DNA from: Pseudomonadota bacterium
Lineage (GTDB): Bacteria > Pseudomonadota > Alphaproteobacteria > Rhodobacterales > Rhodobacteraceae
Length of the DNA: 64,000 nucleotides
Assembly (NCBI GenBank): GCA_039814625.1
Contig: JBCCAU010000008.1
Location: 64,935-128,934 of the forward strand
Direction of reading: 5' to 3'
This document shows positions 1 through 13,943 of this stretch, piece after piece (position 1 is the first letter of the stretch; every line of letters starts with the position of its first letter). The notes beneath the pieces are model-generated. The model saw nothing but the letters and a program-made list of their open reading frames with translations. It was not told the DNA's origin and did not search any database. The translations under genes were made by a program, and so were the position numbers.

Positions 1-252
1 TTGGACTCTTCAGGCGGCAGCGGATGAGGGTCTTCATGAGGGGGGCGAGCCGCAGTCGTTGCATCTGCACCGTGTTTTTCTTGTTGCGTAATACCCGTAG
101 CCATGCCCATATCTCGAAGTTTTGGTAACCAGATCATACTGTATATAGCGGCTTGAAGATGTCTACGAAACTGAAAAACGTCGTGTCGGTGACGTCATTT
201 ATCGCAACAATGGTTGTCGATCTCGATAACCGACGAGTATACTCGCTACGTA

Positions 253-669
253 ATGATCTACAGGAATATCCACCTTGATTTGACCTTCATTGAAGGCAAA
301 GGCCCCGTCTCGAACATGCCGACGCATGGTGGCATTTACGCCGAGATACATTGGCCGACGCGTTCGATCCGTATTGGCGAAACGGGCAATTCGATGCGCG
401 GGCGCAACCGCTCGCACATGAGGTGGGCCGACAAGCACCTTGAGGGAACACACAATGAGAAAGAAGCCGCGCGGAAAGGCCCAATTGTCGACCTTGTGCG
501 CGAATGGGGCTCCGAGGGCCTCGAATACTACGTGATCACGGATGACCCACGGGTCCGCGAGGACCGAGAGTTACGGGTTGAGTGCGAGAAGCGCCTTCAC
601 GAATGGGCGCGAGAGCAGACTGAGTTCACCAACATCAACACGCAGCGCGGATACCGCACCGTGAACTAG
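253..669 (+). CDS. GIY-YIG family endonuclease
   Basis: GGIYAEIHWPTRSIRIGETGNSMRGRNRSH matches the GIY...(Y)IG-x-T...R...H pattern, with a later conserved Glu; ATG at 253 preferred over TTG at 214. Confidence 0.75.
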   Translation: MIYRNIHLDLTFIEGKGPVSNMPTHGGIYAEIHWPTRSIRIGETGNSMRGRNRSHMRWADKHLEGTHNEKEAARKGPIVDLVREWGSEGLEYYVITDDPRVREDRELRVECEKRLHEWAREQTEFTNINTQRGYRTVN

Positions 670-1382
670 TACCAGCCCGCCAGCGAGCCTTGGCCTGACA
701 ACTGCGGTTTGAGGTGTTGTGCCGCGAACGCGCCGACGATTAGCGAAATTCCAAGGTCCCCGTGACCGCCTCGCGACCGCTGCTGTGTGATCACCTGATT
801 GCCGGCGGCGGTCGTTGACGTTGTGAACGTCGCAAGGTCGGCTTCGATCTCGTCGCGCAAAGGCAGGTCCTGCGCGAACTGCAATTCCCCCGACGCAAAC
901 ATGACTGCCGTGTTCTCGATCATGAATGTCTTCCCTGCGTTGATGTACTTCCCATTCCGTCGCCACTCCTGACCGCTTGTCATCTGCACAGCAAAGTGCG
1001 GCACTCCTTGGTCGTCGAACATGTCCGACACAACGCGCCCGATACTCGTCCCATCAATGACAAGCTGCGACTTGCCCCCGAACGGCGGCGCATTCTTCAA
1101 ACGCACGAGGTGGTCGACGACCGCGACATAGGACACGCCTCGAAACCTGTCCGCATAGACGACGTTCAAACGACGCGGGCCAAGCTGCGCACCATCGGGT
1201 GTCATTTCAGGAATTTGCTTGTCTTCGAGAACACAGATGGCCGTGAAGTCGTTCGCCTGACCGAGATCCGCCGACACCCAGTAGCGTCGGTAGCCCGTCA
1301 GGCGCGCGACCGCAGGGTCCGCGTTCGTCTCGTTGACGATTGTTCCGTCTGGGCGTTCGACGAGGTTCAAAGTATCGGACAT
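666..1382 (-). CDS. Terminase large subunit, stand-alone C-terminal RNase H-like nuclease domain
   Basis: SADLGQANDFTAICVL, LVIDGTSIG..V.D and HGDL acidic motifs; own AGGAG RBS upstream of the ATG. Confidence 0.8.
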   Translation of the reverse strand: MSDTLNLVERPDGTIVNETNADPAVARLTGYRRYWVSADLGQANDFTAICVLEDKQIPEMTPDGAQLGPRRLNVVYADRFRGVSYVAVVDHLVRLKNAPPFGGKSQLVIDGTSIGRVVSDMFDDQGVPHFAVQMTSGQEWRRNGKYINAGKTFMIENTAVMFASGELQFAQDLPLRDEIEADLATFTTSTTAAGNQVITQQRSRGGHGDLGISLIVGAFAAQHLKPQLSGQGSLAGWY

Positions 1383-2146
1383 ATGGCCTTCTCCTGTGAC
1401 GTTGCCTGCTCGATCACGGACAGGTCAAAATATGAAACGCCATCCGCGAGAAATTCACACATCACCTCGGCACGGAATCGTGTCGCGGACAGTGTGCGGC
1501 GCAGACGGTCGACCTTCGCCTTGAGGCGTGGGATCGACGTGCCGGGCACCTTGATGCGATGCACGGCCTCCTGAGGCTCGAGGAACATTTGCGCGAACAG
1601 GTTACCCTTTCCTGCGGGCGTTGACGCGTAGAACGCCTGCCCGTTGTCTTTCAGCATGGGCAGGATCGACGAGATCACAGCGTCGTCATTCGGTAAGAAC
1701 GCGCACTCGTCCACGAGAAGCAGGTCTGCTGTGTAGCCACGGATCGTCGCGCCCGACGCCGGAACTGCGATGAACCTCGAGCCGTTATTTGCCTCGATCT
1801 CGGTCAGCGTGGACCGTTCAATAACTAAGTTGGTCGTTTTCAGGTAGCGTGCGACCTTCCGTGTGATCTCTCGCGTCTGGCGTTCGGCGGGTGCAAGGCA
1901 GATCGTTGTGCCCCCGCGCTCCATTTCGCGCACGCCTCGAGCCGCAAGGACACACGACTTGCCCGCCTGACGACACACGAGTAACGCGACGGTCTCGGCG
2001 TCCGACGAGAACGCCTCGGTCTGCCATGGGTCCGCAATTGCACCCGGGATTTCCGTTTGCAGGAAGCGGCCCATCTTCAAACCAAGGTCGTTGTCGCCTT
2101 CGATTAGGTCGAGGAAGTCGATAAATGCGGAGGCATCAAGCGGCAT
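1367..2146 (-). CDS. Terminase large subunit, stand-alone N-terminal ATPase domain
   Basis: Walker A CRQAGKS, Walker B LLLVDE, motif III ASTP, and C-terminal F.AE.MCEF linker. Confidence 0.88.
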   Translation of the reverse strand: MPLDASAFIDFLDLIEGDNDLGLKMGRFLQTEIPGAIADPWQTEAFSSDAETVALLVCRQAGKSCVLAARGVREMERGGTTICLAPAERQTREITRKVARYLKTTNLVIERSTLTEIEANNGSRFIAVPASGATIRGYTADLLLVDECAFLPNDDAVISSILPMLKDNGQAFYASTPAGKGNLFAQMFLEPQEAVHRIKVPGTSIPRLKAKVDRLRRTLSATRFRAEVMCEFLADGVSYFDLSVIEQATSQEKAICPIL

Positions 2147-2435
2147 CTTGGCTCGGGTCTATTAGGACCATGATCAGGCCGCGGTCGAAGTCATCTTCCA
2201 TGCGCACACCGTAACCTTTGTTGCGCAAGTCCCAGTACATGGTCGAGCGGATCGCGTCGTCTGACCAAGGCGTGCCTTTCTTGCTGACGCAAATGCGGCG
2301 CAGTTGTGCCATCGTCGCGCCTGTGCGCAACGCCTCGACGATCTTCTCCTGCATCGTGCCCGCTTTCGGCGGATACACTTTGAGGCCTGTCGGGTGGATG
2401 TGGATGCGTCCATGACGTGATTTAAATCCCGGCAC
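2136..2435 (-). CDS. Small winged-helix DNA-binding protein (DUF3489-like)
   Basis: GTMQEKIVEAL..GATMAQL....W....IRS pattern; overlaps both neighbours. Confidence 0.55.
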   Translation of the reverse strand: MPGFKSRHGRIHIHPTGLKVYPPKAGTMQEKIVEALRTGATMAQLRRICVSKKGTPWSDDAIRSTMYWDLRNKGYGVRMEDDFDRGLIMVLIDPSQDAA

Positions 2436-2994
2436 TGCTGTCTCCTTTCGTGACGGACAGCTTCTCCTCGTTCAGCAGGCGAAGCAGTGTTGGGCGAATT
2501 TCGGGATGGGCGTCCACGAGTTCGCGGAATATCTGTCGCACGCGCAGCCATTCGGGGGCCTCGGACAGTGCGACCGTGACTGTCAGATTCTGGGCCAATT
2601 TTCCCTGTAAGGAGGCGATATCCCTGAGGACCTTGCGCAGGCTCTCGAGGCCCGCCAATGCGAACGCGTCGTCTTCCGTCGACTCCGCCCGCGACACAAT
2701 CGCGTCCACGCGTTTCGCCAAGCTCTCGTAGGTGCGCGACACGTCCAGCCGCTCGTCGTTGAGCATCGACGTGATCTCGTTCGCACGCCGCACACGATCC
2801 TCGGCCAGAATTTCGTGCCGCCGCATGTCGTCGATCCGCAATTGGATGTGACGGTTCACGGACGACGGATGGCACCCGATGATTGCGGCAACCTCGGCTG
2901 TCGACTTGCGCTTCAGAACAAGGTCGGCTTCGAGTTCGGCTTTCTGTGGGTGTAGGTCGAATTTCGACTTCCCGCCTGAATGCTTGTTGCCCAT
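2422..2994 (-). CDS. Terminase small subunit-like protein
   Basis: N-terminal HTH (STAEVAAIIGCHPSSVNRHI), coiled-coil middle, C-terminal APEW...HPE; lies upstream of TerL. Confidence 0.65.
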   Translation of the reverse strand: MGNKHSGGKSKFDLHPQKAELEADLVLKRKSTAEVAAIIGCHPSSVNRHIQLRIDDMRRHEILAEDRVRRANEITSMLNDERLDVSRTYESLAKRVDAIVSRAESTEDDAFALAGLESLRKVLRDIASLQGKLAQNLTVTVALSEAPEWLRVRQIFRELVDAHPEIRPTLLRLLNEEKLSVTKGDSSAGI

Positions 2995-2995
2995 G

Positions 2996-3403
2996 TCACG
3001 CGACTCCCGCGAATTTCATGGGCAACGCGCATTCGTGGATGTCATACATCGGCAGCACGAAAGCCAGAGCATGAGAGAGGACCGTCCGTTGATACGAACC
3101 CGCACAGCAGACCCGATAGGCATCATTCGCAAGATGGCCCCGAACACCCGCAGCTACCAAATCCTCGCGAGCATCAATCGGCTCGCTACCCTTGAAAACG
3201 ATCAGGTCCAGAAAGGCCACATATGCCGCGATCCTCGCAACGCGCGGGACGTGGCTCAGCGCGTCCAAATTGAACGCCGTGAACGAGCCGCTGCCTGACG
3301 ACACCTCGCCGTGATCCGAGACGACGGGATCGCTCAGGTCGCCATAGTCGAGACCCGTTGCAAGATGCAGGACGGCTTTTTCTTCATTTGTCAGCTTGGG
3401 CAT
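2996..3403 (-). CDS. Hypothetical protein
   Basis: 135-aa ORF tightly packed between operon neighbours. Confidence 0.6.
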   Translation of the reverse strand: MPKLTNEEKAVLHLATGLDYGDLSDPVVSDHGEVSSGSGSFTAFNLDALSHVPRVARIAAYVAFLDLIVFKGSEPIDAREDLVAAGVRGHLANDAYRVCCAGSYQRTVLSHALAFVLPMYDIHECALPMKFAGVA

Positions 3404-4010
3404 TTTGAGCCTCCGCCGCGCGAGCCATCAGGTCCAATTTCTGGGCCATGTGCTGAGGCAGGTCTGTGGCGTCTTTGAACGTGCGCAACGTGTAGCCGTC
3501 GCGCTCCGCCGCCATTGAATTCTGAACGAACCCCTGACCACCCATCGCAATGTCGTGGCGCACGTAACGCACTTTCTGCGCCGTGTCCTCGAGCATGTCG
3601 ATTGCCGACGTGTCCACGTCCTTCTTCGCGTGCTGCGGGATCGGCTCGCCTGCACCTTCGCGGTCGTCGACGATCTCGAGTTGCACGTTCTGCTCTTTCG
3701 CAAGGTTTTGCGCCTGCGTGTATTTGAAAGGATCAAGGGCTTCCGTGCGCGTGATCTGCACAGGGTCGCCTTCCTTGCGGTACGGGGCTTCGATCTTCGG
3801 CGTCTCAAGCTTTTTGAGCAAGGCGGCGTAGTCGGCGGCTGTTGGGGTTTTGGGTGCGTCGGGGTCCTTGGGACCCTTGAGTTTCGTCAGCAGGTCGGCG
3901 TTCATCTCGTAAACGTCGTCATACTTCTTGTCTTGCGCGTCGACCTTCTCGGTCAGCGCCGTGACCTGCTGAATGAGCACCTGCAAAGCGGCTGCGGTCT
4001 GATCGGTCAT
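3384..4010 (-). CDS. Hypothetical protein, possible capsid scaffold-like protein
   Basis: AGGAGG RBS; N-terminal coiled coil and Pro/Lys-rich linker; first gene of the packaging block. Confidence 0.65.
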   Translation of the reverse strand: MTDQTAAALQVLIQQVTALTEKVDAQDKKYDDVYEMNADLLTKLKGPKDPDAPKTPTAADYAALLKKLETPKIEAPYRKEGDPVQITRTEALDPFKYTQAQNLAKEQNVQLEIVDDREGAGEPIPQHAKKDVDTSAIDMLEDTAQKVRYVRHDIAMGGQGFVQNSMAAERDGYTLRTFKDATDLPQHMAQKLDLMARAAEAQNAQADK

Positions 4011-4026
4011 GCGATCCTCCTATCCA

Positions 4027-4075
4027 AAAGCAAAATGAGGGGCCTCGATGTCCGACCCCTCATTCAGTTTGCTTT
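4027..4075 (-). terminator. Putative intrinsic terminator upstream of the packaging block
   Basis: Minus strand AATGAGGGG-loop-CCCCTCATT followed by TTGCTTTT. Confidence 0.5.
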
Positions 4076-4154
4076 GAACAGGTATGGGACACGGTCATCG
4101 CTAATGTTTTGGACAGCGAGAAAGGAGCGCTCAACCATTGAATAAGGTGGATCG

Positions 4155-4676
4155 TCAGGCAGTAATGTTCGTTTCCCATTCGTCGAGCAAGGACGCGTTC
4201 GCGGGAATGAATGGTGAGCCATTTCGACCGGGTGGCGGGTCTTTTGGCTTAGTCGGGACGGGTTTCGGACGTGCGCGTTTCGGCTTCGGGAGTGGTGGGG
4301 GTTCCATCATCTCGCGATACAACGCGCGCGCCTCGTCGATCCTCTCTTGCTTGAACCTCGCGACACCGGGCGTGTTCTCGCCCGCCTTCACAAATACCGG
4401 TATGTCTGTGACGCCAAGGAGCAAGTCGCGCATGTGGTCAGTAAGGCTGTCGCCATCAACGCCGATCTGCGAGCAAATCCAATTTCGATGCGCCCGCCAT
4501 TCGCCACGCGAGGCCGTCAAGAATTTGATGGCTTCCGTTTGTGCGATCAATCGCGCGTCACCTCCTTGGAACGCCTGCGGCGAGATTGCGTCGTTGAACG
4601 CCTGAAGGATGATGTGGGCAAACAGGTTGCCGCACTTCATCCCCTCTTCGATGTTATAGGAAGGGTCGTTGTTCAT
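4155..4676 (-). CDS. Phage-type hypothetical protein
   Basis: LF..II.QA..DA......A..FL.....W....C..IG.D pattern recalled from phage hypothetical proteins; Pro/Lys-rich tail. Confidence 0.6.
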   Translation of the reverse strand: MNNDPSYNIEEGMKCGNLFAHIILQAFNDAISPQAFQGGDARLIAQTEAIKFLTASRGEWRAHRNWICSQIGVDGDSLTDHMRDLLLGVTDIPVFVKAGENTPGVARFKQERIDEARALYREMMEPPPLPKPKRARPKPVPTKPKDPPPGRNGSPFIPANASLLDEWETNITA

Positions 4677-4978
4677 TCCGCGAACGGATCGCCGTCGTTG
4701 CCGCGTGCCTGCGCTATGATCGACGGGACGTAGGCCAGGGGGATGGCTGTCGTCGGGACAGAATTCTTCGCGATGTGCAGGTGGGTCGGTGACAGCGTAA
4801 CGCTGTAGGTATCGTTTTCGTTTTTTACGTCGACAGGGATCGCGTGGAGCGAGGGGATCAAGGCGCGTGGGACGACTTTGGTGAGTAGTTCCCGTGGAAA
4901 TTCAATTGATGCGCGTTGCGTGAAGATGTGGCACTCGAACGTTGTTGGGTCCGTCGGTGTTGCGGTGTAGTCGGTCAA
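4673..4978 (-). CDS. Hypothetical protein
   Basis: TTG start with AGGAGG RBS; 4-nt overlap with the next gene. Confidence 0.6.
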   Translation of the reverse strand: MTDYTATPTDPTTFECHIFTQRASIEFPRELLTKVVPRALIPSLHAIPVDVKNENDTYSVTLSPTHLHIAKNSVPTTAIPLAYVPSIIAQARGNDGDPFAE

Positions 4979-5205
4979 TTGGGCCTCCTGGTTGTCGGTG
5001 AATTGCGCGTCCGATAGCGCAACCTAGAAATGACCATCGAACGCGCGAGACCGCCCACCCATCCGTTGAGGCGGTCGCCAATGAATATCAACCGCCCAGG
5101 GGAAGGTGTTCCGGGGATTGAGGTGGATTCGGAGAAGTTTGAGGTGGAATTTGTAAGTCGACCAAACTACTTGAATTCGGCCACGCGCTGGAAAAGACTA
5201 AAGCA

Positions 5206-6900: not shown

Positions 6901-9209
6901 TTAGAACGCGTCCTCACGCGCCTTGTGTTCAAGAAACGCCTCCGCCGATCCCTCGCCCGTCTGTGAATATGAGAACGAACGCCACGCTTCCATCTCGGGA
7001 TACGTTTCGCCCGTCACTTTCGACACGATGCGCTGGAACGTCGGAAGGTCAGGCAGGCGCAAGCCGCCACGAAAGTCGTTTTTGACAGGCTGCATCACCA
7101 TCACGCCCTCTTGGCTCGCATAAGAATGCCAGCGATCAATAACGGTGCAGTATGTTTCTTTGACGCAGCCAAACTTGCGCACCATCTCGTTGCGCACGGT
7201 CTGGGAACTCTCGCGCCCGCCATGTTTGACATACTCGCGATGCAGCGACGCCGACGACACAGTACCGCGCCCGCGCAAGTCATCCGGCATACGCCTGTTT
7301 CTGCGATCTCGTTCATGAGTGCGAGTAAAGGGTCTGACGCGATCTTGTCTGACTTCTTCGCCTCTGTGACATAACCATAGCCGATCAAGCCACGGTCAAC
7401 CTCGTAGTCGAGCAGGTATTGCAAAACCAAGCCCGCGTTGTCGTCAACGAGGTCATAGTATGGCTGCCAAAACGCACGCGCCTCGCGACTGTTTGGATCG
7501 TGTTCGAACTTCGAGTTCATTTCGATCACCGTCCACCTTCGGTCGTCGTTGTCGATATGCACGGCTTGCGTTGCGTTGGTCGTCGCAATGACGCGATGCA
7601 CATTCTTGCCTGTGAATGATGCGAGATACTTCTGCTCATACGTCCAGACGTCCGACGTGACGAATGACTTCATAGTTGCCGCTTGTTGGCGTGATCCCGC
7701 AAACAGCGCCTCCTCGCACAGCACGAACGTTGAGCCGAACAGGTCACGATTGAAGCGGTCAAACATGCGAGTAGAACCGTGGATGGTCCGCGCGTGACGT
7801 TCACCGAGTAATTTGCGCATTGCACGTCCAAGGAACGTCTTGCCTCCGCCTTGTCCGCCACGCAGCGCGAGTGCTGATCCTGGATGTATCGACCACGGTC
7901 GTTGAATCGCGTCCGCGAGATACGTCATGACCCAGTGCGCAAGATCTTTGTCGCCACCACAGACAATGTTCTCGATATAGTCGATCCACAGTGACGGGTC
8001 GCCGCGCTTTGGCGTAACGGCCCATTCTTCGAACACATTGAACCCTGCACCTTCATAATCCGGCGACTCGATCACGATGCCTCGGTATTCGTTGCGGTCA
8101 ACGTCCATCATCCACAGCTTCGCCATAGGCACAGGGCCGTTCTTCGTCGGTACTGTGTGAGGTGCTGTCATGTCGAAGAACGAATTCTTGGGATAGCAGT
8201 CGCCATCCTCCTTGTTCAGAAACTCGACTTTTCCCTCGACAATCATCATAGCCCATTCGCGATTGAACTTCTCGACAATGCGATAGTGCAGCGGTGCGCG
8301 TGAGCCTTTTTCGAGACGGATCGTCGTCTTCCACATGGCTTCGATTTCTTGAAATGCCAGCGGGCCGTCAGCGAACGCCTCGTGAAACTTCACGCCCTCT
8401 TGGTTCAGTCGAAACAACTCGGCTTTGATGTCGCTATCTGTCCAGCCACGTGACTGCATTGACCGCGCAATGCGCATCAGCAAGTCGTTGCGTCCTGCGG
8501 GATCAACAGGCACCTTATAGCCTAGGTCAGAGTCGTCCATGACAGGATCGGCTTTCGCCATATCAGCGAGAAGCGTCGCGTCGATACGACACTTCTCGTC
8601 GATGAATCTCAGTACACCAAGCAAGTCAGCGTCGTCCGCATATGAGCCGCTGTTACTTTCGGAAATCACCCACGCAATCTGACACTGTTGGCCTCGCAGC
8701 GGCAGATTGACAGACGTTGGTTTGTCGTCAGGGCCTACAAGCACCTGCGACGCTTTTGGGAAAATCTCGATATGCTGCTGCCAATCCTTCGGCATGTTTC
8801 GGCGTTTCGATGCCAAGAAGTCGTGCATCAATTTTGCAGACACAGGCTCATCTGGAAAGACGACGACGTGTAGGCCGCGCGACTTCGTGCGAAATGCAGC
8901 AGATGGGCAGCGCATCCGCTGTTGTACCTGCAACACGTCATCCTCCAGCATGTCGTAGATGTCGAAGTCGAGAACGCCATAGGCGCACGTGCTGTCTGAC
9001 TTCACAGGTGCGATGCCGTAAGACGCCTGCCCAAGCAAATGCGCGTTCGCCATTTCGAGGGTCACAGGTGCGTCAATCAGCGTGACTTCAACTTCTGCCT
9101 TGCCTTTTTTGTCTCGACTACCTTTCGGCGTTAGCGAGATGTGTCGGTCCTGATTGCCGTCGAATAGTCGCAGGAATGTCTCTGCGGCTTGGATGTCATA
9201 ATCGTCCAT
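6901..9209 (-). CDS. Primase-polymerase / SF3-type helicase (AEP + PriCT + DUF5906-like), frameshifted near 7291
   Basis: VLDFD and S.GLH AEP motifs, GRND PriCT motif, Walker A GGQGGGKT, Walker B LCEE; natural C-terminus continues in the 6901-7290 frame. Confidence 0.82.
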
Positions 9210-9758: not shown

Positions 9759-10916
9759 TTACGCAGAAAAGATGCTTTCCGCAACGTCAAAAGAAGAAGT
9801 CGACTTAGAAACAATCTGTTGAGCGACTGCGTTCACGTCGTCGTGGGAGCCAGCCGACTTGATGTATCGGCTCACCGCACCCTTTGCGACGACCTTGTCG
9901 CCGCGCAAATGTTTGATGGTTATCTCAGACAAGCCGACTAGAGCCGCACCCGTGGAGAAGACAGATCGACCGTCTTTCGGGCGCAGCAAGTTCGGGTCAC
10001 CAAGTGGACGGGGCACAACCATCGGAGTGTCCCTTGTCATCGACGCGAACACCCAACGATCATGTATTCGGGGCAGCGATTTGAACGCTGCGACGGCAGG
10101 ATCAGAAAGCGGGAAGGTCCGCTTGAGGTCATTCTTGAGACGCGGGATAGTCAATTGCTTTGCGTCTAGGTCTAAGTGTTCCCATTCGATTTTGCGTAGG
10201 TGGCCGGGACGAATGCCTGTGAACACGACAGCTCCCCAGAAAGCACGCTGACGGCGATCCTTAACCTGCGTAACTAGGTCCATAACAGGCCAAGGTTTAT
10301 CGACGTCAAACAGGAGTTCGTCCTCTCTTTGGCCGAACCCTTGCACACCGTGCGTTGGGTCGTGTTCGAGATCGTTCTGCAACATTAGTTCGTTGGCGTA
10401 GATGGAAGACAGGATGCGGAGGAGTTTGGTTGCAGTTGTCGGCTTGTGGGCGAGTGAGCGAATGCGGTCGTTGACCATCGCCTTGCGAATTTTCAGGATC
10501 GACAAATCGAGCCAATCAGCCACGTGATTGTTAAGCGTGTTCTCGTAATCGTAGATCGTGTTCTGACGCTTGATCTTGGTGCGGGGATCAATCGGATTGC
10601 GCGTGTGGCGGTCGAACGCTTCGCGCAACGTGACCTGCTGTTTCGCCGTTGCCGTTAAGCGCCCTTCGTTCACGGCCTCATTCTGTTCACCGACTTCGCG
10701 ACCCGCAGCCAGATAATCGACGAGCGGCCACGTCCCAATCGTTCGCACCGTATTCTTGCCATCTTGGAATTTTCGGAAGCGCCATGTCTTCGTCTTCGCG
10801 CCCACTTCCATATACAGATTTGGAAAACGGGCATCGCGGTAGCGATCTGTTCCGCTGCCTGAATGTTTAAGCTTATCGAGTGTGCCTTTGGTGAATGTGA
10901 TCGTCTGCGTTGCCAT
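9759..10916 (-). CDS. int: Tyrosine recombinase/integrase with arm-binding N-terminal domain
   Basis: N-terminal arm-type domain, FTGIR box I, KDGR box II, C-terminal RY; adjacent to the att repeat. Confidence 0.9.
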   Translation of the reverse strand: MATQTITFTKGTLDKLKHSGSGTDRYRDARFPNLYMEVGAKTKTWRFRKFQDGKNTVRTIGTWPLVDYLAAGREVGEQNEAVNEGRLTATAKQQVTLREAFDRHTRNPIDPRTKIKRQNTIYDYENTLNNHVADWLDLSILKIRKAMVNDRIRSLAHKPTTATKLLRILSSIYANELMLQNDLEHDPTHGVQGFGQREDELLFDVDKPWPVMDLVTQVKDRRQRAFWGAVVFTGIRPGHLRKIEWEHLDLDAKQLTIPRLKNDLKRTFPLSDPAVAAFKSLPRIHDRWVFASMTRDTPMVVPRPLGDPNLLRPKDGRSVFSTGAALVGLSEITIKHLRGDKVVAKGAVSRYIKSAGSHDDVNAVAQQIVSKSTSSFDVAESIFSA

Positions 10917-11048
10917 GAGGTCGGGCTCCATTTTGCAATTGAATTTTGCAATTGCGTAGTCGCCAAAACCGTGTCCGATCAACCGGAAGTCATTGTTTTT
11001 AAGGTAAAAACTGTCAGATCCACCGTGAGCAACCGACTTCCATTGAAT

Positions 11049-11092
11049 TTGTAATCAGTAGGTCCGCGGTTCAAGTCCGTGTGGGGGCACCA
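11049..11092 (+). repeat. att site: duplicated 3' half of tRNA-Thr(UGU)
   Basis: TTGTAATCAGTAGGTCCGCGGTTCAAGTCCGTGTGGGGGCACCA contains anticodon loop, T-arm GGTTCAA and CCA, but has no intact 5' half. Confidence 0.85.
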
Positions 11093-11294
11093 GATCATCC
11101 CAAAAATGGCAGCGTTTTCCATTGTCGGCATTGCAATAGTGTTCCTTTCGTGCGGGATTTGGGCGCTCGGGTCGATAAAGCGCATTGCGTTCCGCGACGC
11201 CGCAAGCGCATTTAGAGCAGGGTTTTTACTCTGATAGACACTGGGACGCTTAGATCGTTCAAAACGCATGTGATCGTCGGGCAGGGGAAAACCC

Positions 11295-12446
11295 TTATAG
11301 CGCAGCTTGGAAGATGATTTGAAAATCTTCGGCACGCAAGTCGACGGCATTCCGTTTGCTGGAAGATGCAGCTCGAGAGGCTTTGGCAAGAGCTGGGATC
11401 GCCTCTGCCCGCACGTTGAACGCGGCTAGACGTGGCAATCCCTGATCATCTTGCCAGTGCTCAAGACCTGAAAGCTCATCTTGACTGCTGATCGGAGCAA
11501 ATACATGGGCGATAGACGCAAAACAAGTCCGCAATCGCCTCTCTGCCTGTGATCCGGTTTCGCATCTAGCCAAGTTCCGACGCAACGCAGGCACTAGTAA
11601 TCTGCCACATAAAGCACCATGCGGGGCGCCATATTGGCCGCCCAATATGGACGCGGCACCATGCACCGCACCAAGTCCGGAATTCGCAAGCGCAACGCCG
11701 CTGCTGGTACTCACCCATGCCATGGCGCGCCAAGCTTCTGGATCGCCAGAGGCCAGAATGGTTTTTAGGGCATCTAGACCAAGGGCAATGTTCGGTTCAG
11801 TCAAGGCATCAGAGAAGGGCGTGGCTGCGTTCGAGGTATAAGCTTCTATCGTTTGCACAACCGCATCTAACCCAGATGATAGAACGGTGCGCGCGGGCGC
11901 CGATGGCAACAGTGCCGGGTCAATCAAGGCGTAGCTTGCATAGAGTCCACGTCCTCGCAAACTGACTTTGGCTCGCTGAGAAGGGATATCCAAAACTGCG
12001 TTCGCTGTTGCCTCTGCGCCGGTTCCAGCCGTCGTTGGGATCGCAACAAGCGGCAAAGGCCCGGGTTTGTCCAAAAGCGCGGTTGGGGTATCGCCAAACG
12101 CGTCTGTCAGATTGAGGTCATGCCCTAAGCAAAATGCAACAGCTTTTCCGGTGTCGAGCACCGATCCACCACCACAAGCAACCACGGCGTCAATTGCCTT
12201 GTCCGAAAGGGCCTGAACAGCTGCGTTTACAGATGCCACCGAGGGCTCGTGGCCGCAGGTCAGCTGAAGTACGGAAACCCCGTGTCTTTCTAAAAGTGCA
12301 ATGATCGGTTGGGCCGCAGCACCAACTGCGCCCCGCAGAACAGCCACATGGCGCGCGCTTTGTGGCAAGACATCAACTACCTCTTTGCTGACCCCATCGC
12401 CAAAGCGCAGCTGTGTTGGGACGCGAAATGAAAACGGGTGTTGCAT
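11295..12446 (-). CDS. Iron-containing alcohol dehydrogenase
   Basis: GGGS..D.GK, PTTAGTGAE, D...Q.IE, and H...H metal ligands. Confidence 0.92.
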   Translation of the reverse strand: MQHPFSFRVPTQLRFGDGVSKEVVDVLPQSARHVAVLRGAVGAAAQPIIALLERHGVSVLQLTCGHEPSVASVNAAVQALSDKAIDAVVACGGGSVLDTGKAVAFCLGHDLNLTDAFGDTPTALLDKPGPLPLVAIPTTAGTGAEATANAVLDIPSQRAKVSLRGRGLYASYALIDPALLPSAPARTVLSSGLDAVVQTIEAYTSNAATPFSDALTEPNIALGLDALKTILASGDPEAWRAMAWVSTSSGVALANSGLGAVHGAASILGGQYGAPHGALCGRLLVPALRRNLARCETGSQAERRLRTCFASIAHVFAPISSQDELSGLEHWQDDQGLPRLAAFNVRAEAIPALAKASRAASSSKRNAVDLRAEDFQIIFQAAL

Positions 12447-12455
12447 GGATTTGGT

Positions 12456-13943
12456 TTAGAACGTCATTGCGGCGTGGACGGCCCGTTGCCACGAAGCGTA
12501 CTTTTCCGAACGGATTTCGGATGGTAGATTTGGCGTAAATTGCTGATCCACCTCCCATTGGGCCGCGAATTCTTCTTGGCCGGGCAGGGCGTCTGCCTGC
12601 ATACCGGCCAGCCAAGCGACCCCTAAAGCGGTTGTCTCCAGCACTTTTGGACGGTCTACGGGCGCGTCAATGATGTCGGCGAGGAATTGGATGGTCCAGT
12701 CTGATGCGCTCATACCGCCATCGACGCGCAACACCTGGTTTGTATCCTGAGAAGGCCAATCCGCGCGCATTGCTTCAAGCAGGTCGCGCGTCTGAAATCC
12801 GACGCTCTCTAGGGCGGCCCGGGCAAGCTCCTCTGGACCGGTATTGCGGGTCATGCCAAAGATCGCGCCGCGGCATTCTGGGTCCCAATATGGTGCACCA
12901 AGACCTGTAAAAGCTGGCACCATGACTACGGATTGGGACGGGTTGGCTCGTTCTGCCAGCGGTTGCGTGTCGGACGCGTGACGAATTATTTGCAAACCGT
13001 CGCGCAACCATTGCACGACCGCGCCGGCGATAAAGATCGACCCTTCCAATGCGTATGTGGGTTTTCCGTTCAACTGATAAGCAATGGTTGTTAAAAGCTT
13101 GTTTGACGATTTTACGGCCGCATCCCCGGTATTGAGCAGGGCAAAACAGCCAGTCCCATAGGTTGACTTCATCATGCCCGGCTTGAAGCAGGCTTGGCCA
13201 AGCGTTGCAGCTTGCTGGTCGCCGGCTACACCGCAAATCGGGATAGCGCGACCAAATAGATCGCTGCGACAAAGTCCAAAATCAGCGGCGCAATCTTTGA
13301 CTTCGGGCAGTATAGAGATTGGGATATCCATCATATCGCAGATTGTCTGGCTCCACCGCCCTTTGCGTATGTCATAGAGCATCGTGCGTGCTGCGTTGGT
13401 TGCGTCGGTTGCATGCACCTTACCGCCTGTCAGTTTCCAAATGAGGTAGGTGTCGACGGTCCCGAACAACAGTTCATCGCGGGCAGCGGCGCTGCGTGCG
13501 CCGTCAACATTATCAAGAATCCATTTCAGTTTGGTGCCCGAGAAATAAGGGTCTAGCAGCAAGCCTGTTCTGTCGGCTACCATGTCGGCATGGCCTGCGT
13601 CGTGCAGATCGCGGCAATACTGTGCGGTCCGCCGGTCTTGCCAAACAATGGCGTTGTAAATGGCCTGGCCGGTTTTTCTGTTCCAGATCACAGTCGTTTC
13701 GCGTTGATTGGTTATACCAATAGATACGATTTCGCTTGCATCGATTCCGGCGCGTTCAATCACAGCACGCGATGTGCCAGCGGTTGTCGCCCAAAGGTCT
13801 TCAGGGTCATGTTCGACCCAGCCTGATTGCGGGAAGATCTGCGGAAATTCCTCTTGTGACACAGCAACCGGTGTCAGGGTTTTGTCGAACAGGATGGCAC
13901 GAGACGATGTTGTGCCCTGATCAATCGAAAGAACGTAAGTCAT
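12456..13943 (-). CDS. glpK: Glycerol kinase
   Basis: [30 protein letters not shown] motifs. Confidence 0.97.

Follow-up and report, generated by a model that had tools for sequence, protein, structure and literature searches.

The large terminase subunits (TerL) of phage T4 (gp17) and of the Thermus-phage group (P74-26, G20c, MMP17 and Riverbug) are single polypeptides of ~416 to 610 amino acids (aa), in which an ATPase domain is followed by a nuclease domain. The packaging ATPase of phage phi29, gp16, works without a covalently attached active nuclease, and phi29 packages a protein-primed, unit-length genome for which no cutting is needed. Among phage satellites, classical phage-inducible chromosomal islands (PICIs) and phage-inducible chromosomal minimalist islands (PICMIs) carry at most a small terminase subunit (TerS) or a redirecting factor and use the TerL of their helper, and capsid-forming PICIs (cf-PICIs) carry their own capsid genes. 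In terL genes interrupted by group I introns or inteins (e.g. in Staphylococcus phages, Jug jumbo phages and cyanophage Mic1), splicing restores a single chain (PMC12880540; PMC7156551). Full-text searches of the literature found terL split in this way only, by introns or inteins, and nothing on an overlapping two-gene TerL, on islands like the one reported here or on Dshi_1916, a gene of the culturable carrier Dinoroseobacter shibae DFL 12. Here, we describe what is very probably a genuine and ancient two-gene TerL, with separate ATPase and nuclease subunits made from one operon, in a satellite-like island of a Rhodobacteraceae genome (NCBI GenBank assembly GCA_039814625.1, contig JBCCAU010000008.1, positions 64,935 to 128,934 of the forward strand). 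This whole 64,000-nt stretch is called the window, and positions are counted from its first letter.

The pair shares with T4 gp17 and the Thermus-phage TerLs the ASCE ATPase fold and its motifs, an RNase H-like nuclease with an acidic triad, and the domain order from ATPase to nuclease; it differs from them in having separate genes, an extra 29 aa at the nuclease N-terminus and a location in an island without head genes. As in intron- or intein-split terL, more than one terL open reading frame (ORF) is found in the DNA; unlike in those genes, there is no intervening sequence, and with a 16-nt overlap between the ORFs nothing is left to splice. Like phi29 gp16, the motor ATPase has no covalently attached active nuclease; unlike gp16, it has a partner protein that is a complete nuclease and retains every catalytic residue. 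The island resembles phage satellites (PICI, cf-PICI, P4-like, PICMI) in its integrase, tRNA attachment (att) site, primase-replicase, size of 14.2 kb and lack of tail genes, but unlike PICIs, PICMIs and cf-PICIs it carries TerS-like, TerL-ATPase and TerL-nuclease genes together with no capsid or portal gene. What appears to be new is a clade of putatively heteromeric TerL tied to satellite-like islands. The gene pair and its junction comprise the following features.

2146..1367, minus strand: predicted TerL ATPase gene, 259 aa, C-terminus ...SQEKAICPIL, stop codon TGA at 1369-1367
1382..666, minus strand: predicted TerL nuclease gene, 238 aa, RNase H/RuvC-like, ATG at 1382-1380
1367..1382, minus strand: 16-nt overlap of the two genes (ATPase 3' end, nuclease 5' end), with the nuclease in the -1 frame relative to the ATPase
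1387..1395, minus strand: Shine-Dalgarno sequence of the nuclease, AGGAGAAGG, within the ATPase coding sequence, containing AGGAG with the GGAG core at 1394-1391, 8 nt before the ATG

The nuclease ATG is preceded by CACAGGAGAAGGCCAT, and the sequence 5' of this start, CACAGGAGAAGGCCATATG, is letter for letter that of an earlier note on this DNA. That note had described an ATPase ORF with Walker A, Walker B and motif III that ends after the interdomain linker, and a nuclease that starts 16 nt before the ATPase end behind its own strong ribosome-binding site; every one of these details is correct. Upstream of its own ATG the nuclease frame has just 14 open codons, and no promoter-like site was found between the two genes. 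The TerS-like orf190, orf99, the ATPase and the nuclease form a run of overlapping genes. At the far end of the nuclease gene, the palindromic CTAG at window positions 666-669 provides the stop on both strands, for the nuclease and for a convergent 151-aa ORF (214-669, plus strand).

The first ORF is predicted from its motifs and modelled fold to encode a TerL-type ASCE P-loop ATPase with Walker A (RQAGKS, nt 1955-1972), Walker B (LLLVDE, 1706-1723) and the coupling motif III (STP). It matches Pfam Terminase_6N (PF03237) at 5e-9, above the family cut-off, and phrog_7579, a family labelled terminase large subunit with only 239 positions, at 3.6e-38; a profile built from 18 homologues matches T4 gp17 and the ATPase domain of P74-26 TerL in the PDB. 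The AlphaFold2 model has a predicted local distance difference test score (pLDDT) of 75, with a low-confidence tail at residues 237-259, and its best Foldseek matches are the crystallised P74-26 ATPase domain (7ks4, 4znk), followed by T4 gp17, both with probability 1.00. The match to the P74-26 ATPase domain runs nearly end to end (247-254 aligned columns, chain of 252-258 residues). K63 of Walker A, D146 and E147 of Walker B, and S175 and T176 of motif III are invariant among homologues.

The second ORF gave no match in a Pfam search; in PHROGs, its entire length matches phrog_27743 (233 positions, unknown function) at 1.1e-27. Its AlphaFold2 model (pLDDT 85.7) has as top Foldseek matches the TerL nuclease domains of G20c (5m1f, E 1.6e-8), P74-26 (5tge) and E217 (8dkr), all with probability 1.00. 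The acidic residues D39 (nt 1266-1268), D110 (1053-1055) and D209 (756-758) line up in hhalign with the DLA, DATG and HDD motifs of the fused Riverbug TerL, and D39, D45, D110 and D209 are invariant among 25 homologues. Fold and residues together identify the product as a probable TerL RNase H/RuvC-like nuclease with a conserved acidic triad. The entry name of one UniRef record gives this half as "gp17-like". No relative was found in a scan of IMG/VR with the nuclease protein, nor any match by tblastn against GenBank phages; the more distant Firmicutes nuclease does reach the fused TerLs of Thermus and Meiothermus phages in the phage search.

Those fused proteins show where the chain is broken. 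In the closest relatives among cultured phages, MMP17 of Meiothermus and Riverbug of Thermus, TerL is encoded by one gene (1,248-1,254 nt, ~416 aa), with ~32-35% identity over the ATPase. In hhalign comparisons the ATPase family aligns to Riverbug TerL residues 4-240 and nuclease residues 30-228 align to 246-408, so the break falls exactly in the 5-residue interdomain linker of a one-chain TerL. Relative to the fused form, the split form gains a short low-confidence ATPase tail and a conserved 29-aa extension at the nuclease N-terminus; the latter had been noticed before as an extra N-terminus, and residues 1-29 indeed have no counterpart in Riverbug TerL.

One genome per prokaryote species was scanned, yielding 65 loci (here given L numbers), mostly in Rhodobacteraceae, of which 54, from Rhodobacteraceae and a few Firmicutes, have both halves. 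Among these 54, the nuclease start lies at -16 nt relative to the ATPase stop in 44 and at -4 nt in four, with single loci at -85, -49, -1, +10, +19 and +77. The ATPase stop codon varies (TGA in 39, TAG in 8, TAA in 7) at a kept position, the nuclease starts with ATG in 51 and with TTG in 3, and a Shine-Dalgarno-like motif lies 4-16 nt 5' of the start in 50, though the ATPase residues encoded there vary. The ATPase stop is selected as a stop, and the nuclease start as a start. A one-per-genus sample of the same bacterial family was positive in 20 of 301 genomes. Eight more distant loci, namely seven subfamily members from the 301-genome sample and a locus in a deltaproteobacterial metagenome-assembled genome (MAG; L067), still have two ORFs, at offsets of -148, -14, -13, -11, -4 and +3 nt (L077 is ambiguous, at -13 or -4). 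In the deltaproteobacterial locus (L067 9146-10648) the ATPase and nuclease share one frame and are kept apart only by TAA and 3 nt before the ATG, and across the loci examined all three relative frames (0, +1, -1) occur. The two-ORF layout thus recurs across more than 60 independent assemblies, with protein identities of 50-92%, and since the arrangement is kept across so many independent genomes, chance is excluded as its source.

A search of 1.84 billion representative proteins with the nuclease profile gave 2,897 matches at E<=1e-3 (723 at E<=1e-10). The best 150 of these 2,897 are all stand-alone proteins of 54-335 aa, most of ~190-260 aa, with no 450-500-aa fusion among them, and PHROGs likewise holds the halves as two families (239 and 233 positions). 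A 498-aa open frame in G194 was considered as a natural fusion and rejected: it is a long overlapping open frame, with the halves in different frames and a 148-nt overlap. At L074 (G190:C1:2305300-2312300), nuclease residues 64-238 form, in frame, the C-terminal part of a 1,005-aa open frame (minus strand, 2010-5027) with no ATPase nearby, which may be an odd fusion or a remnant. Neither here nor in any intact relative examined do both domains lie on one polypeptide. The earlier note had taken the pair for an evolved two-gene TerL and not a sequencing frameshift, and had asked whether homologues are split at the same point and whether close ones are fused; the split at -16 nt in 44 of 54 loci, its presence in every intact relative examined, the kept stop, start and Shine-Dalgarno sequence and the short, stand-alone proteins among the best 150 nuclease matches strongly support that view, and fused relatives were found only at ~30% identity, in Thermus and Meiothermus phages.

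The genes lie in an island of 14,237 bp between 51-nt direct repeats (49/51 identical) of the 3' half of a tRNA-Thr gene, with the following further features.

2136..2435, minus strand: orf99 (99 aa), overlapping the TerS-like and ATPase genes, matching phrog_7790 (unknown function) at 2.7e-8, present in 4 of 65 loci
2422..2994, minus strand: candidate small terminase (TerS-like, 190 aa, orf190), N-terminal helix-turn-helix and helical domain, the next conserved gene upstream of the split TerL
3384..4010, minus strand: orf208 (208 aa, conserved), present in 48 of 65 loci
7101..9209, minus strand: primase-helicase, AEP primase and D5/VapE-like helicase (Pfam AEP-TOTE, DUF5906, VapE-like; PHROG DNA primase families)
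9759..10982, minus strand: tyrosine integrase (Pfam Phage_integrase, Arm-DNA-bind_3; phrog_1)
11047..11097, no strand assigned: right-hand att repeat, 51-nt copy of the tRNA-Thr 3' half, found by repeat search
C11:61744-61794 of the genome, about window -3190..-3140, no strand assigned: left att repeat, inside an intact tRNA-Thr gene to the left of the window

In most of the 65 loci, an integrase is followed ~9 kb downstream by orf208, the TerS-like gene, the ATPase and the nuclease in this order, and a TerS-like homologue is present in 54 of 65, including those of Firmicutes (L065, L066). By its position and architecture, orf190 is a candidate for the TerS. Searches of orf208 against Pfam, PHROG, PADLOC and NCBIfam gave no match, and, considered as a possible scaffold protein, it has no detectable similarity to its positional equivalent in L065, a Phage_scaffold protein. 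The island also holds small genes of unknown function, and a scan of its ORFs for capsid, portal, protease and tail families (Pfam, PHROG) detected none. A cargo region 3' of the nuclease (window 1-665 and further left; L004 11170-14137) encodes the 151-aa ORF, an N6/N4 DNA methyltransferase, a 295-aa ORF and an HhH-GPD protein, with a GC content of ~50% versus 59%. The corresponding cargo comprises two methyltransferases and a NOV_C protein in L081 (10361-14749), and Peptidase_M78 and Beta_protein in L082 (10847-13836). A Logan contig of 14,893 bp (L081, nuclease 92% identical) runs from att to att at the same tRNA. The 14-15 kb Logan contigs were considered as circular episomes, a reading that was rejected, as their ends lie inside a 46-51-nt att repeat, which breaks k-mer assembly anyway. 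In the distant Firmicutes relatives, an integrase, an AAA_25 replication protein, a Pfam Phage_scaffold protein, a TerS-like protein and the split TerL are followed by host genes. In L065 (2381-3839), the Phage_scaffold gene (204 aa) and an unannotated 278-aa ORF, which could be a coat protein, stand before the TerS-like gene and the split TerL.

With an integrase, att repeats, its own replication gene and a small size, and without a capsid or portal gene or other virion structural genes in these searches, the island looks like a satellite. On other contigs of the same genome there are three sets of HK97-type capsid and portal genes (C18:39884-44425, C20:67289-70790 and C21:1406-3765), which are candidate helpers of the island. 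The C18 set includes an intact one-chain Terminase_6N TerL in the order terL-portal-capsid, which resembles the gene order of gene transfer agents. Rhodobacter capsulatus DSM 1710 (L012 and L018) and the Roseovarius MAG OX638333 (L010 and L051) each carry the element twice; the distance of ~14 kb between the Roseovarius copies suggests that they integrated in tandem at a single att site.

That the pair functions as a terminase is suggested by its homology and synteny, by intact motifs and by purifying selection; several observations weigh against this picture. The TerS-like gene has only weak helix-turn-helix and DUF1804 matches in Pfam and weak helix-turn-helix matches in the PDB; the absence of a capsid is drawn from Pfam and PHROG searches of ORFs, which a very divergent small coat protein could escape; and decayed copies exist (the ATPase is truncated in L012, L032 and L047, a 2.4-kb insert interrupts the nuclease gene of L060 at 10001-13112, and the nuclease genes of L061 and L062 are frameshifted), so not every copy is under selection. 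The island might also use the pair for something other than packaging. The ATPase and nuclease would then be terminase-derived proteins that no longer package, co-opted, for instance, against the DNA or packaging of helper phages or for replication or processing of the island, as the missing capsid, portal and tail genes and the variable cargo slot just 3' of the nuclease (methyltransferases, NOV_C, Peptidase_M78 with Beta_protein), typical of conflict islands, would allow. We consider this unlikely, as PADLOC defence models match neither the halves nor their neighbours (PADLOC and NCBIfam gave no match for any gene of the module from orf208 to the nuclease), the TerS-like helix-turn-helix protein always precedes the pair in the same order as in phage packaging modules, the Firmicutes relative L065 has its Phage_scaffold gene in the same module, and 14.2 kb is within the size range of satellites packaged in small capsids.

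Far less probable still is programmed -1 ribosomal frameshifting in the 16-nt overlap, which would produce a one-chain TerL, alone or beside the separate products. The -1 frame of the nuclease and the strikingly constant overlap length (44 of 54 loci) are what such a mechanism would call for, but an X XXY YYZ slippery heptamer is found in the last 60 nt of the ATPase frame in none of the 54 loci, the overlap sequence itself differs between loci, and the predicted fold of the junction RNA is no better than that of shuffled sequence (z = 0.34). Both the ATG and the Shine-Dalgarno sequence of the nuclease are moreover conserved, and a -1 shift could not bridge the halves in relatives whose genes overlap by 4 nt or 1 nt, are spaced +3 to +77 nt apart or stand in a +1 or zero frame relation, such that comparative geometry largely refutes frameshifting. 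An indel from sequencing or assembly in an ordinary fused terL, or its recent pseudogenisation by a frameshift, can practically be dismissed, for although a one-base indel at the domain linker would give exactly such a picture in a single genome, the two ORFs recur in the >60 assemblies above with invariant catalytic residues, a varying stop at a kept position, a conserved start and Shine-Dalgarno sequence and no fused protein among the best 150 of 2,897 nuclease-profile matches, which refutes this explanation for the family. Judged across the family, sequencing error, recent pseudogene formation and programmed frameshifting are thus all excluded as general explanations.

For the two-gene TerL, we propose that the nuclease initiates at its own ATG behind the Shine-Dalgarno sequence inside the last ATPase codons. 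With this sequence in the ATPase 3' end and the overlap, a classic arrangement, translational coupling is possible, and ribosomes ending the ATPase gene would re-initiate on the nuclease gene, which should lead to near-equimolar synthesis of the two proteins. ATPase and nuclease would then associate non-covalently into a heteromeric TerL, with the ATPase tail (residues 237-259, low-confidence or disordered) and the conserved 29-aa nuclease N-terminus as the likeliest contacts. Together with the TerS-like protein, this complex would cut and package the DNA of its own 14.2-kb tRNA-Thr island, most likely into the capsids of helper phages, that is, as a satellite.

Pairwise identities disagree between the two halves, in both directions. 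L018 and L040 share 52% identity in the ATPase and 81% in the nuclease, and L005 and L035 share 87% and 60%, respectively; in both pairs nucleotide identity in sliding windows rises or falls stepwise at the junction. The ATPase alignment rejects the clade of the nuclease tree (L018, L028, L040) with p = 4e-62, and in the reciprocal tests on nuclease data the alternatives were not rejected (p = 0.14 and 0.075), such that only one direction is statistically decisive; the groups for these tests were picked after the trees had been seen. Exchange of ATPase and nuclease alleles between elements at the junction is therefore suggested, not proven, since the reciprocal tests are not significant and the groups were chosen post hoc. 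The idea, raised in the earlier note, that the split permits mixing of terminase parts gains limited support from this, for mixing between elements and not with helper phages. A wider and tentative proposal is that these islands form an undescribed satellite family in Rhodobacteraceae, with distant Firmicutes relatives, that carries a complete three-protein terminase and no capsid, and in which the split is adaptive because the motor half and the cutting or portal-docking half could be swapped independently between elements, at the junction, to match different helper capsids or different packaging sites.

Packaging motors have been studied with TerL domains that were separated artificially, and there is still debate about the domain that contacts the portal and about a role of the nuclease domain in translocation. 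A large natural family with separate, co-translated subunits would be a ready system for asking how the halves meet, in what stoichiometry, and which of them docks on the capsid. In current annotation, phrog_27743, the nuclease half, goes under "hypothetical" or "unknown" and the ATPase half by itself goes under TerL, with the consequence that these elements can be mis-scored as having broken terminases. With matches in 20 of the 301 one-per-genus genomes, the finding suggests that integrative elements with a terminase of their own and no capsid are a widespread class.

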